Source of the DNA: Candidatus Aerophobetes bacterium Ae_b3b
GTDB taxonomy: Bacteria; Aerophobota; Aerophobia; Aerophobales; AE-B3A
DNA: 64,000 nucleotides
Reading direction: 5' to 3'
Assembly (NCBI GenBank): GCA_005223085.1
Contig: NJBP01000005.1
Coordinates: forward strand, 2,815 to 66,814
In this document: in pieces, positions 2,468 to 37,849 of the stretch
Position numbering within the stretch: the first letter of the stretch is position 1
How the letters are laid out: each line of letters starts with the position of its first letter
Translations under genes and position numbers: made by a program
Notes under the pieces: generated by a model
What the model saw: the letters and a program-made list of their open reading frames with translations, nothing else
The model's database searches: none
What the model was told of the DNA's origin: nothing

Positions 2468-2610
2468 TGGTAAATGCTTAGTAAACGCCGTGTCACATTG
2501 AATTTTCAGGGTAGCCGCACCCTTTAGGGTGCGCATAAACGCAGGCTAAGATTTTGCGCAGGCTGAAGCCTGCGACTACCAAAAATGACGGGGTTCACTG
2601 AATACTTACG
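2468..2610. repeat. MITE-like palindromic element with REP-doublet core (copy 1)
   Basis: Near-identical to 36764-36882. Core REPs are GGTAGCCGCACCCTTTAGGGTGCG (2510-2533) and CGCAGGCTGAAGCCTGCGACTACC (2557-2580). The outer arms are imperfect inverted repeats, and the element is flanked by direct TACAG (2463-2467, 2611-2615). Confidence 0.75.
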
Positions 2611-2651: not shown

Positions 2652-3980
2652 ATGAGTAAGATAAAGAGAATCGCCGGATTTTTTAAAGGCTCCTATTTGA
2701 ACTTAATTCCCTCTACATATCGCCAGGATGCATCGGAGCTAACTACCCTATATAAGTGGCTCTTGATTGGGCTTTTAATTAGATTAGCCTTTATGCCTTT
2801 CACCGTCTATTATCCTGATCTTTTGGCGCTTTACTGGCGTTCTTCCTGGATAGCCTACCAAGGACGAGTTCACACCATAGGTGGAGGTGATCTAATTATT
2901 CATTTTTTCCATGCCTTTTTTTTATGGATCTTCAAGCCGTTAATGCCTTATTTTGACACAATTCTTAACGACCCAAAAATGGGTCCCGCCGCCACCTACC
3001 GAATGTTTCAGACTTTCGGTATGCATCCGTATGTGTTCCGAACGCTCTTCCTTTTTAAGGTACCCTACTTGATTTTTGATTTAGGATGCGCATTTTTGTT
3101 TTTGCACCTTTTTAAGGACCGTAAAAAAGGATCAGCAGCCTTTAAGTTTTGGATGGTCAATCCCATTGTTATATTTGCCACCTATATTGCAGCAAGATAT
3201 GAATCAGTGGTTATATTCTTTGTTCTATTAAGTTTATACTTTGCTAAAAATAACCAATGGCGAAAATCAGCCCTCTGTCTGGGCGGAGGTATCATTATCA
3301 AATTCTATCCCCTTTTTTTCTTGCCTTTGTTCATAATTCTTCGGGGAAAGAAGTGGCTAAAATCTCTAGAGTTTGCCTTCCTGGCTTTCATTCCTTACGC
3401 ATTCCTACTTTTTTTAGCTCACTCATTTCAGCGGGCCGGAGAAGTAGTAGGAGTGGTCAGAATTTATAATGTGGATCATCTCTTAAGAATGAATTTTTCT
3501 CTTGTAGGATTGGATGTCATATTTGTTTTTGTGGCAGCATACATGGTCATACTGTTGTCCCTTGCCACTTATTCAGAGTACTCATACGAGAAACTATGGA
3601 AATCTATGTTTGTGGTAATGTTGCTCCTTTTTGCCACCTGTCATTTCCATGTCCATTATTTTATGTGGCTAATTCCATTGTTAACGCTTCAAGTTGCAGA
3701 AGATAAAAGATTCACCAGACTCTTTATTGTTCAGGTTCTATGTTTTGTGGTTTATAGCTGGCAGTGGAACAGACATTTTTTTGGTTACCTCTTTACCCCG
3801 CTTAACTTCCCTTATTTTGCCTGGGGGGTACCAAATCCACTGGATATTGTAGCTCGATTTTATTCATATACCAGAACTCTGGGTATTGCTCGTAGTATAT
3901 TTTCGGCAGTTTGTATCTGGATGATATATTTGGTGGTGAGAGACGCTTTCATAAAAAAGGCAAAGCTTGGTGAATTATAA
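2652..3980 (+). CDS. polytopic GT-C-like membrane glycosyltransferase (DUF2029/GT87-like), paralog A
   Basis: 442-aa, ~12-TM ORF. Shares 'LIGLLIRLAFMPF', 'FKPLMP', 'LFLFKVPYLIFDLGCAFLF' and 'FKFWMVNPIVIFA' blocks with the ORF at 6041-7354. Confidence 0.45.
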   Translation: MSKIKRIAGFFKGSYLNLIPSTYRQDASELTTLYKWLLIGLLIRLAFMPFTVYYPDLLALYWRSSWIAYQGRVHTIGGGDLIIHFFHAFFLWIFKPLMPYFDTILNDPKMGPAATYRMFQTFGMHPYVFRTLFLFKVPYLIFDLGCAFLFLHLFKDRKKGSAAFKFWMVNPIVIFATYIAARYESVVIFFVLLSLYFAKNNQWRKSALCLGGGIIIKFYPLFFLPLFIILRGKKWLKSLEFAFLAFIPYAFLLFLAHSFQRAGEVVGVVRIYNVDHLLRMNFSLVGLDVIFVFVAAYMVILLSLATYSEYSYEKLWKSMFVVMLLLFATCHFHVHYFMWLIPLLTLQVAEDKRFTRLFIVQVLCFVVYSWQWNRHFFGYLFTPLNFPYFAWGVPNPLDIVARFYSYTRTLGIARSIFSAVCIWMIYLVVRDAFIKKAKLGEL

Positions 3981-29921: not shown

Positions 29922-30464
29922 GGTAGCCGCAGGCTTCAGCCTGCGTAGAGAAATGATAAACAGAAATGTTAGAGAAAAGAAACACCGGTTACCTCTGCAC
30001 TGCTACCTGGGGCAGGTAAGGGTAACCTTCACTCTTTGTATTGAAGACAAAAGACCCTTTTTTGTGGAAAAGGCAATAGTGGATAAGTTCATAGAAATCC
30101 TAAGAGAAGCGAAGGAAAAGTATAATTGTAAAAATTGGGTATATATGTTCATGCCAGATCATTTGCACGTCGTTAATGAAGGTATTTCAGACAGTTCTGA
30201 TTTATGGAAAATGATGAATTTTTTCAAACAAAAGACTGGTTTTTGGCTATCGCGGAATAAAAAAGGAACGAAATGGCAAAAAGATTTTTATGACCATGTT
30301 CATCGGAAAGAAGATGATTTAAAGAAGCACATAATCTACATTCTGGATAATCCAGTAAGAAAAGGGTTAGTCTCTGATTGGAAAGATTATCCTTCCAAAG
30401 GGTCACTGGATTTTAGCTTGGAAGATATTATTTCATGAAACGCAGGATAAATCCTGCGGCTACC
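29922..30464 (+). mobile_element. REP-RAYT unit (tyrosine transposase gene bracketed by inverted REP hairpins)
   Basis: REP-L is GGTAGCCGCAGGCTTCAGCCTGCG (29922-29945). REP-R is CGCAGGATAAATCCTGCGGCTACC (30441-30464), the reverse complement of the same head plus hairpin. The unit sits between ribBA and ribH. Confidence 0.8.
29953..30438 (+). CDS. REP-associated tyrosine transposase (IS200/IS605 TnpA-like Y1 HUH enzyme)
   Basis: HUH motif 'MPDHLHVV' and C-terminal '[32 protein letters not shown]' (catalytic Tyr region). ATG at 29953 is preferred to GTG at 29920, which lies inside REP-L. Confidence 0.75.
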
Positions 30465-35091: not shown

Positions 35092-35186
35092 GAATGCACC
35101 TGAGGTATAGAATTTCAATAATTTCTCTGAATTGTTATCAAGTAAACCTTGGCAATCGAGATATCAGAAAAAAAAGAGGGGAGCAG

Positions 35187-35281
35187 GCTCGACTTGCTCG
35201 AGCGAAGCGAGAGTCGGCTTTGCCGATCGAGCCGTCGAGGGGGGATATTTCCCCCCTCGAGTATCTTGGTGGGGGATGGGA
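35187..35281 (+). promoter_or_regulatory. hairpin-rich 5' leader of leuC with a possible SD-sequestering switch
   Basis: Hairpins GCTCGA/TCGAGC (35187-35203) and TCGGC-TTT-GCCGA (about 35213-35227). A further 11-bp stem TCGAGGGGGGA/TCCCCCCTCGA (35235-35260, loop TATT). The C6 tract could alternatively pair with the G-rich SD at 35268-35280. Confidence 0.4.
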
Positions 35282-36688: not shown

Positions 36689-36717
36689 TTGACAGTTGGG
36701 AGAGGTTTTGTTAAAAT
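36689..36717 (+). promoter_or_regulatory. sigma70-like promoter (TTGACA-17-TAAAAT)
   Basis: TTGACA 36689-36694 and TAAAAT 36712-36717. The downstream transcript would include MITE copy 2 before the coiled-coil gene at 36977. Confidence 0.45.
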
Positions 36718-36763
36718 AACTTTAAAATCGAAGATATTCGACATACACATAAATAGGTGGGCG

Positions 36764-36882
36764 TGTAAATGCTCAGTAAACGCCGTGTCACATTGAATTT
36801 TCAGGGTAGCCGCACCCTTTAGGGTGCGCAGGCTCTGAGCCTTGCGACTACCAAAAATGACGGGGTTCACTGAATACTTACG
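36764..36882. repeat. MITE-like palindromic element with REP-doublet core (copy 2)
   Basis: Arms near-identical to 2468-2610. REPs at 36805-36828 and 36827-36852. Flanked by direct TGGGCG (36758-36763, 36883-36888). Confidence 0.75.
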
Positions 36883-36976
36883 TGGGCGTTAGGTAAAAAG
36901 CTGATGATTTGTTGGGAAAGGAGGTGAAAGTAAGGTTTTTTCAAAAATACTTGACGAACGGAGGAGGTTCTGAGAA

Positions 36977-37849
36977 ATGTTAACCAAGACTTTTTTGAAA
37001 AGATGTGGGATGGTAGGATTATTAGCATTCGGTATTCTCTGGACTCAGATGCCGGTTAAGGCCCAAGAAAAGTCGGTGAGAGAACAACTCGCAGAAGCTA
37101 AAGCGGCAATTGCTGATCAGGTATGGGTAATCGAGCAGATGAAGGATAATTTCTTCAAAGTAACCGGCCAACTAGAGACAGAGATCAAAAAGCTAAGAGC
37201 AATCAATATCGAACAAGCCAGAAAGATTGAAGAGGTCACCAATGTCTATTCGAGAAAAATTCAAGAGTTGGGAGGTGAACTGGATCGTCTTAAGGCAGCG
37301 TACACTAATCTCGAGGCTGTCAATGTTGAGCAGGCTCAAACCATCAAGCAGATCACCGATAACTACTTTGAGGTAACCGGGAAGCTTGGTGAGGAGCTTG
37401 CTATACTCGAGGCTGCCAATGCTGAGCAGGCTCAAACCATCAAGCAGATCACCGATAATTTCTTTAAGGTAACTGGAGAACTCAACAGCAAACTGGGTTC
37501 ACTCGAGGCTGCCAATGCTTCACTCGAGGCTGCCAATGCTGAGCAGGCTCAAACCATCAAGCAGATCACCGATAATTTCTTTAAGGTAACTGGAGAACTC
37601 AACAGCAAACTGGATTCACTCGAGGCTGCCAATGCTTCACTCGAGGCTGCCAATACCGAGCAGGCTCAAACCATCGAACAGATGAGGGATAATTTCTTGA
37701 AGGTAACAGGTAAGCTAAACGAAGAGGCAAATATGCTCAAGGTGACCATAGACGAGCAAGCTGCCACCATCAAAAAACTTAAAGGTCAGAGAATGCTTCT
37801 CGGTCTTGGATTCCTAATAGCCACAGCTGTATTAATAAGTTGTGACTAA
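36977..37849 (+). CDS. secreted repetitive coiled-coil protein with C-terminal membrane anchor
   Basis: Signal-like N-terminus ('LLAFGILWTQMPVKAQE'). Six or more copies of '..EQAQTIKQITDNFFKVTGEL..' and a C-terminal 'MLLGLGFLIATAVLISCD'. Confidence 0.6.
   Translation: MLTKTFLKRCGMVGLLAFGILWTQMPVKAQEKSVREQLAEAKAAIADQVWVIEQMKDNFFKVTGQLETEIKKLRAINIEQARKIEEVTNVYSRKIQELGGELDRLKAAYTNLEAVNVEQAQTIKQITDNYFEVTGKLGEELAILEAANAEQAQTIKQITDNFFKVTGELNSKLGSLEAANASLEAANAEQAQTIKQITDNFFKVTGELNSKLDSLEAANASLEAANTEQAQTIEQMRDNFLKVTGKLNEEANMLKVTIDEQAATIKKLKGQRMLLGLGFLIATAVLISCD
37310..37715 (+). repeat. in-frame tandem repeats (96-nt then 117-nt units)
   Basis: 'CTCGAGGCTGCCAATGCTGAGCAGGCTCAAACCATCAAGCAGATCACCGATAA...' recurs at 37406, 37523 and 37640, a 117-nt period. 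Units 2 and 3 are nearly identical; a diverged unit starts at 37310. Confidence 0.9.

Follow-up and report, generated by a model that had tools for sequence, protein, structure and literature searches.

A REP-containing repeat of an uncultured Aerophobetes bacterium is probably a MITE mobilised in trans by an IS66-family transposase

Two look-alike palindromic repeats, each enclosing a pair of opposed REP hairpins, were found on the same stretch of DNA as the gene of a REP-associated tyrosine transposase (RAYT), and the question raised by this locus is whether the repeats move and, if so, which enzyme moves them. The stretch that was analysed (the window) is 64,000 nt long and corresponds to G000:C37:2815-66814, where G denotes a MAG, C a contig and L a contig found by searching. 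The host is an uncultured sediment bacterium (Candidatus Aerophobetes), and its MAG, G000, comprises 2.04 Mb in 86 contigs, with 43% G+C and an estimated completeness of 88.6%. Four other MAGs of the genus, G001, G002 and G003 among them, were used for comparison, together with MAGs of other genera and families. The initial annotation of this DNA described the repeats as a non-autonomous family mobilised in trans and implied that the RAYT moves them as BIME-like doublets. The first statement was borne out by the multiple copies, the absence of coding capacity, the 8-bp duplications and the empty sites described below. The second was not, because the element has inverted repeats, a constant 8-bp duplication and arms that match the ends of IS66-family elements. 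Judging from these sequence features, we propose that the element is very probably a non-autonomous MITE moved in trans by an IS66-family DDE transposase, with a REP doublet captured as its core, and that the RAYT is unlikely to be its mobiliser.

Copy 1 occupies positions 2470-2609 on the plus strand (140 nt) and is a long-core form of the repeat family that we call family A, and copy 2 occupies positions 36765-36881, also on the plus strand (117 nt, short-core form); the extents given previously, 2468-2610 and 36764-36882, were corrected to these ends. The element starts with GTAAATGCTCAGTAAAC and finishes with GTTCACTGAATACTTAC (GTAAAT... and ...CTTAC), and each copy consists of a 40-nt left arm GTAAATGCT(T/C)AGTAAACGCCGTGTCACATTGAATTTTCAG, the REP GGTAGCCGCACCCTTTAGGGTGCG, an opposite REP and a 29-nt right arm AAAAATGACGGGGTTCACTGAATACTTAC. 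In copy 1, the left arm (2470-2509, plus strand) is followed by REP 1 (2510-2533, plus strand, GGTAGCCGCACCCTTTAGGGTGCG), by a degenerate extra hairpin present only in long-core forms (2540-2558, plus strand, CGCAGGCTAAGATTTTGCG), by the inverted REP 2 (2559-2580, minus strand, with the head GGTAGTCGC on that strand) and by the right arm (2581-2609, plus strand). The corresponding parts of copy 2 are the left arm at 36765-36804, REP 1 at 36805-36828, the inverted REP 2 at 36829-36852 and the right arm at 36853-36881. In each copy the second, oppositely oriented REP hairpin terminates in GCGACTACC. The first 22 nt of the left arm and the last 24 nt of the right arm are the terminal inverted repeats, which resemble the right end and the left end of an IS66-family element, respectively. 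Both copies were present with near-identical arms as had been claimed, the identities being 39/40 for the left arm and 30/30 for the right arm, and position 10 of the left arm is T in copy 1 where the family consensus has C. The arms are also imperfect inverted repeats of each other, as had been noticed, with 17/22 matching positions over their outer 22 nt (GTAAATGCTCAGTAAACGCCGT and GTAAGTATTCAGTGAACCCCGT).

A search of the whole assembly by BLASTN, which the initial annotation had suggested, showed that the family is multi-copy. About 15 full-length family A copies and several truncated ones, with arms that are 95-100% identical, were found in G000, and the two look-alike repeats of the window are not a chance pair. 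The commonest form is 115-117 nt long, with copies 95-100% identical to each other, and copy 2 is 100% identical over 117 nt to a copy at G000:C11:34033-34149. The size of the element is 104-181 nt overall and about 117-181 nt in G000, where the core classes are 117, 140-149 and 181 nt; the long forms (140-181 nt) vary in the core only, which contains one or two additional REP-like units. No long ORF fits inside the element, and it is non-coding. Among the truncated copies are those on C68 and C6, one of which keeps the left arm and both REPs without the right arm, and the other of which is reduced to the right arm and a part of the core. Three of the four congeneric MAGs contained 12-21 matching stretches each. 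No full-length copy was found in the MAGs of other genera and families, where the REP part alone or the terminal 26 nt alone was matched. A family A copy of 115 nt, perfect and flanked by the 8-bp duplication TTCAGCAG, was observed on L057 (JAZGAR010000002.1), a 2666-nt contig of a MAG labelled as a Thermoplasmata archaeon; rather than archaeal DNA, this is most likely a mis-binned contig from the bacterial genus.

The direct repeats flanking the two copies had been read as target-site duplications of 5 nt (TACAG) and 6 nt (TGGGCG). With the ends correctly placed, both duplications are 8 bp long, TACAG and TGGGCG being the visible parts of the 8-mers, and the worry over their unequal lengths is thus gone. 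The duplication of copy 2 is perfect (8/8, GTGGGCGT at both 36757-36764 and 36882-36889), and that of copy 1 has decayed to 6/8 (ATACAGTG at 2462-2469 and GTACAGGG at 2610-2617). Across family A in G000 the 8-bp duplication is perfect in 10/15 copies, 7/8 in two more and 6/8 in copy 1; the corresponding figures for the congeners G001-G003 are 11/18 perfect and six with 7/8. Pooled, 21/33 copies have a perfect 8-bp duplication and eight more have 7/8. Empty sites were searched for with the joined flanks, from which the element had been removed, and uninterrupted matches were found in congeners. Precise empty sites with a single 8-mer were aligned for eight copies (copy 2, A_C9, A_C39, A_C61, A_C86, A_C23, A_C80 and B_C10). 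At the site of copy 2, G000 reads ...ataaataggtgggcgt(element)gtgggcgttaggt... and G003:C47 reads ...ataaacaggtgggcgttaagt..., with one GTGGGCGT. The site of A_C9 is occupied in G000, G001 and G002; in G003, with flanking sequences of 98% identity, it is empty. The flanks of copy 1 are too diverged, and no empty site was found for it at the nucleotide level; synteny is seen at the protein level only: in G003 the same two genes are neighbours (their products being 48% and 52% identical), and the spacer of about 27 nt between them holds no element. The 8-bp repeats abutting the family ends and the single 8-mers at the empty sites confirmed the flanking repeats as target-site duplications. Only two copies and no empty sites is the outcome that had been named as contrary to mobility; many copies and precise empty sites in congeners were found, and hence the element is mobile. 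Regarding the insertion sites, the expected empty sites were present in relatives and the consensus that had also been looked for was not: no target consensus was found among the target 8-mers, which are modestly purine-rich on the sense strand (65.5% versus 56.6% in the intergenic background).

A related group, family B, has about ten copies of 114-177 nt in G000, with the same terminal repeat and the same long REP core as in family A and with longer arms of an older type. They include C10:15300-15476, C41:24792-24954, C62:6809-6975, C50:5069-5244, C29:36829-37001, C71:37118-37266, C47:12125-12238 and C25:41809-41945. A perfect 8-bp duplication was observed in only 2/8 copies, and one of these two has a precise empty site in G001. 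Where the duplication is missing, the corresponding site of congeners contains either the same insertion (B_C41 in G001) or some other short filler sequence, and these sites therefore appear, from the alignments, to be old and rearranged. At the site orthologous to B_C41 in G003 (G003:C4:55300-55780), about 32 nt, tttactgaccactgatggctgaatgcctacta, stand in place of the MITE, and their right part resembles a MITE end; they may represent the footprint of an excision or a remnant that has decayed.

An IS66-family partner was found in the same genus. Contig G001:C287 encodes a 580-aa IS66 transposase (PF03050, E=1.7e-55), and about 195 nt after this gene lies an IS end, ...ACGGGGTTTACTGAGTATTTAC (...CTAACGGGGTTTACTGAGTATTTAC). 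Full-length IS copies were obtained by a metagenome search with this transposase: the metagenome contigs L089 (transposase 98% identical) and L091 (90%) carry a 3047-bp element (L089:20-3066 and L091:1893-4939) with the left end GTAAATATTCAGTGAACCCCGTCTAAGATTTT (GTAAATATTCAGTGAACCCCGTC...) and the right end GTAAATACTCAGTAAACCCCGTTAGAAATCC (GTAAATACTCAGTAAACCCCGT...). The left arm of the MITE matches the right end of this IS at 20/22 positions (GTAAATGCTCAGTAAACGCCGT, the family consensus, versus GTAAATACTCAGTAAACCCCGT), and the right arm of the MITE matches the left end at 23/24 positions (GTAAGTATTCAGTGAACCCCGTC versus GTAAATATTCAGTGAACCCCGTC). The two unlike arms of the MITE thus correspond to the two unlike ends of one IS, and past these matches no similarity was found in the alignment of MITE and IS. 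Between the ends, both L089 and L091 encode the IS66 transposase (PF03050, E=7e-55; NF033517, 277 bits for L089 versus a cut-off of 180). Classical IS66 elements have tnpA and tnpB upstream of the transposase, whereas the partner has at this place a 295-aa DruA/DUF4338-like ORF (PF14236, E=3e-48). A 401-bp internally deleted derivative with both ends was present on L070, in G021.

In G000 itself, whose assembly is 88.6% complete, no IS66 transposase gene was found by PF03050 search or tblastn, and there was no pair of MITE-like ends 1-3 kb apart that could belong to an autonomous partner. MAG assemblies frequently miss long repeats. A right end of the IS, 30 nt long and unaccompanied by a transposase gene, stands alone at G000:C26:3574-3603 and shows that the IS66-family element was once present in the lineage. 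The IS itself showed no 8-bp duplication in about 10 full-length or internally deleted copies, all of them on metagenome contigs; chimeric assembly across a multi-copy repeat in short-read contigs may account for this. According to PMC11946415, which cites TnCentral, IS66 elements have 8-bp direct repeats and 20-30-bp inverted repeats that start with GTAAGCG. The MITE agrees with this description in the 8-bp duplications, in the length of its inverted repeats (22-24 nt), in ends that start with GTAA and in a partner that encodes an IS66 DDE transposase. It departs from it in lacking coding capacity and in ends that start with GTAAAT or GTAAGT instead of GTAAGCG, so that 4-5 of 7 bases are common with the canonical start, and only at GTAA(G/A).

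MITEs with a terminal repeat in common, GTAAATAWTCAGTSAAC, were also observed in other genera of the family, on L046 and L054 (SOIS01 contigs) and on L063 and L065 (in G009 and G011). Both copies on SOIS01 contigs are flanked by perfect 8-bp duplications, CATCTATT and CTCCTCTC. The cores of these MITEs, which have TGTCATTGCGAG...GCAATCTC...GAGATTGC as their framework, are unrelated to REPs.

Terminal inverted repeats with a constant 8-bp duplication are the mark of a DDE transposase, and together with arms that match IS66 ends they point to an IS66 DDE transposase, not the RAYT. On these sequence grounds we infer that the MITE is moved by the IS66 transposase. Weighing against this, besides the orientation bias described below, are the lack of an IS66 transposase gene in the G000 assembly, the lack of duplications around the IS copies, the partial match of the ends to GTAAGCG and the low share of family B copies (2/8) that keep a duplication. 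Both arms, as terminal inverted repeats of about 22-24 nt, are the predicted binding sites of the transposase, which would be supplied in trans by the 3047-bp IS of the same genus, with its DruA/DUF4338-like ORF and 580-aa IS66 transposase. The enzyme would bind both ends and insert the unit of 117-181 nt between genes, nicking the two target strands 8 bp from each other, and repair of these staggered cuts would produce the 8-bp duplication. The REP doublet (REPIN-like, GTAG-headed) would be cargo, captured once and now spreading with the MITE, and MITEs now harbour more than half of the REPs in the genome.

The RAYT gene lies at 29953-30438 on the plus strand and is the only copy in the assembly, with one locus detected by tblastn; its product scored 90.2 bits with NCBIfam NF047646 (cut-off 80) and 32.4 bits with Pfam Y1_Tnp (cut-off 23). 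It is preceded by a REP at 29922-29945 (plus strand, GGTAGCCGCAGGCTTCAGCCTGCG) and followed by an inverted REP at 30441-30464 (minus strand, GGTAGCCGCAGGATTTATCCTGCG on that strand), and the heads of the two opposed hairpins in the MITE match those of these REPs, in agreement with the initial annotation. The 24-mer GGTAGCCGCAGGCTTCAGCCTGCG is the inverted REP of most long-core MITE copies, and in copy 1 the inverted REP deviates from it at a single base of the head. About nine 56-nt REP doublets without arms, GGTAGCCGCAACCTTTAGGTTGCG...CGCAGGCTAAAGCCTGCGRCTACC, are also dispersed in G000 and have no conserved flanks; their first hairpin has CAACC where that of the MITE has CACCC. Altogether 54/99 REP-like hairpins found in G000 lie within 130 nt of a MITE end. 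By sequence, the MITE core is identifiable as a REP doublet of the GTAG-headed family, related to the REPs flanking the RAYT and to the arm-less doublets. Since the same ends enclose non-REP cores elsewhere and arm-less doublets exist in G000, we infer that the core is an exchangeable passenger. The simplest history would be that an older MITE lineage gained a REP doublet core in this genus and then multiplied. The two REPs of a pair at G000:C2:30018-30068 are connected by a leftover of the beginning of the RAYT gene, GGTAGCCGCAGACTTCAGCCTGCGTAGAGAAATGATAAATCCTGCGGCTACC. The arrangement resembles a RAYT locus that lost its gene through a deletion between short GATAAA repeats and was thereby reduced to a REPIN-like doublet.

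The common REPs raise the possibility that both enzymes act, the IS66 transposase moving the unit and the RAYT recognising the internal REPs, with core length variants or released arm-less doublets as the result. The cores do vary (one, two or three hairpins; 117, 140-149 and 181 nt) around constant arms, the 24-mer of the RAYT 5' REP is present inside the long cores, and the truncated copies on C68 and C6 each lack one arm. However, slippage between the repeated GCGCAGGCT motifs or recombination between copies could also yield such variants, and the CAACC in the first hairpin of the arm-less doublets, instead of CACCC, shows that these are not simply released MITE cores. We consider a contribution of the RAYT of this kind rather unlikely.

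Several IS families give 8-bp duplications, and the MITE could in principle belong to another DDE family with duplications of this length (e.g., ISL3, IS256 or IS1595), its likeness to IS66 ends being coincidental. The duplication length is indeed not peculiar to one family, and G000 has no IS66 transposase gene. Coincidence is nevertheless highly improbable, given that two unlike arms match two unlike ends of one IS66-family element at 20/22 and 23/24 positions, that the transposase of the 3047-bp element occurs in the same genus and a solo IS end in G000, and that no other candidate with MITE ends was found in G000.

The view that the whole element is a REPIN- or BIME-type doublet, moved by the RAYT (HUH, 29953-30438) through single-stranded DNA, is hardly tenable. 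It would fit the core, a REP doublet whose head is of the same GTAG type as in the RAYT-flanking REPs, the RAYT itself, which is a bona fide family member (NF047646), and the strict orientation bias described below, a strand asymmetry of the kind seen in single-strand transposition and familiar from the IS200/IS605 family. However, the conserved unit reaches 30-40 nt past the REPs on each side and has inverted repeats at its ends, and a constant 8-bp duplication abuts these ends, whereas IS200/IS605-type transposition is not known to make a target-site duplication. About nine REP doublets in the same genome lack such flanks, the arms match an IS66-family element, and MITEs with the same ends and no REP occur in genera outside this one. 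In comparison with the REPINs and RAYTs of Pseudomonas fluorescens (PMC3116915, PMC3337134), inverted GTAG-headed REPs, a single-copy RAYT flanked by the same REPs and dispersed arm-less doublets are common to both systems, but REPINs have no inverted repeats beyond the REPs and no duplication, whereas the present element has 30-40-nt arms and 8-bp duplications. With arms and duplications outside the REPs, the element as a whole is therefore not a REPIN or BIME. The BIMEs of Escherichia coli are likewise mosaics of oppositely oriented REPs in intergenic regions; they are not known to carry terminal inverted repeats or duplications, nor to be moved by a DDE transposase.

Every copy lies outside genes, in many cases within a 150-300-nt spacer that separates two co-directional genes. 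Copy 1 lies between the co-directional ORFs 469-2451 and 2652-3980, 18 nt past the stop of the former and 42 nt ahead of the start of the latter. A strong sigma-70-like promoter, identified by consensus match only (TTGACA, 17 nt, TAAAAT, with TG), is located upstream of copy 2 at 36689-36717 on the plus strand, and if it is used, copy 2 would be in the 5' leader of the gene starting at 36977. Promoter and terminator scans found nothing inside copy 1 or copy 2. The orientation of family A is strongly biased. In G000, 11/11 informative copies are co-oriented with the flanking genes, and in the congeners 14/14 are, representing 13 independent insertions, which gives 24 independent informative copies co-oriented versus 0 opposite (two-sided binomial p ~1e-7). 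Family B does not have such a bias, with one copy co-oriented and four opposite. Two simple causes were rejected: the purine bias of the target (65.5% versus 56.6%) is too weak, and regional GC skew predicts the orientation of family A less well than local gene direction does.

When folded as RNA and as single-stranded DNA, as had been suggested for this element, it was predicted to adopt a single long hairpin in which the arms pair with each other, with z about -3.5 versus shuffled sequence. For copy 2 the predicted fold is more stable in the antisense than in the sense orientation (-49.4 versus -41.7 kcal/mol; z -5.8 versus -3.5). The antisense form has a near-continuous terminal helix of 17-18 bp, because three A-C mismatches become G-U pairs, and the sense form is interrupted by mismatches. 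The difference between sense and antisense folding is small for copy 1. We suggest that selection may act against the antisense orientation in transcribed spacers, e.g., by cleavage of the long helix, and RNA-level selection would then lie behind the orientation bias; the alternative is a strand-specific insertion mechanism. Insertion in one fixed orientation would not be expected of a DDE transposase, and thus the 24/24 bias counts against our reading of the element as an IS66-moved MITE. An immobile cis-regulatory structure, conserved as RNA or DNA at fixed positions in orthologous loci, would suit the intergenic position of every copy, the co-orientation of the informative copies with transcription and a fold better than that of shuffled sequence (z about -3.5), but can practically be dismissed, since insertion sites differ among congeneric species and precise empty sites exist, the genes neighbouring the copies are unrelated to one another, orthologous conservation across species was not seen for most copies, and an Rfam search gave only a chance-level match (ALIL, 12.6 bits versus a threshold of 50).

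Among known systems, the closest precedent for the present element is QMITE2 of Coxiella burnetii, a MITE with a GTAG REP (PMC5896051). QMITE2 is described there as a 150-190-bp MITE with terminal inverted repeats and 7-11-nt direct repeats, with a GTAG-type REP inside, located in intergenic and 3' regions and with short versions that look like bare REPs. The two elements are alike in being small MITEs with terminal inverted repeats, direct repeats, a GTAG REP and an intergenic position. In the passages considered, PMC5896051 names no partner IS or transposase for QMITE2, whereas the present element has an IS66-family partner and a constant 8-bp duplication. It is further distinguished from QMITE2 by a full inverted REP doublet, by the orientation bias, by a RAYT in the same genome that is flanked by REPs of this kind and by separate doublets that lack arms. 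The hosts are unrelated lineages, Coxiella being a gammaproteobacterium and the present host belonging to the Aerophobetes. Correia/NEMIS, ERIC, RUP, Chunjie and Nezha elements are likewise small, structured MITEs of intergenic regions that are often co-transcribed, have terminal inverted repeats and duplications, and move in trans (PMC10969869, PMC3733652), but they derive from different parent IS families, differ in the length of the duplication and do not contain a REP doublet. No description of an IS66-derived MITE was found in the literature searched, the coverage of which was incomplete.

These results indicate that a REP- or REPIN-like repeat can be a DDE-type MITE, which matters where REPs are taken as markers of RAYT activity. 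Since 54/99 REP-like hairpins lie near MITE ends, counts of REPs would overstate RAYT-driven spread in G000. They also provide a MITE with an identified IS66-family partner, one that carries a DruA/DUF4338-like ORF, and whether a given site is occupied by the MITE can serve as a strain marker in an uncultured sediment lineage. The complete orientation bias poses the question of whether mRNA-structure selection or strand-specific insertion decides which insertions survive. We tentatively entertain, as a possibility short of an even chance, a wider reading in which a RAYT-type substrate was captured as the core of an IS66 MITE and most REPs spread in that way, with the strict co-orientation arising by RNA-level selection or by an undescribed strand-specific mode of insertion.

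Another dispersed repeat, the third, is about 165 nt long (GGGGGGAAATATCCCCCCTCGACGGCTCGA...) and was observed in about 18 copies in G000 and in many copies in the congeners. One copy is in the window at 35103-35268 (G000:C37:37917-38082), just upstream of an aconitase-family gene, and others adjoin MITE copies on C73 and C11.
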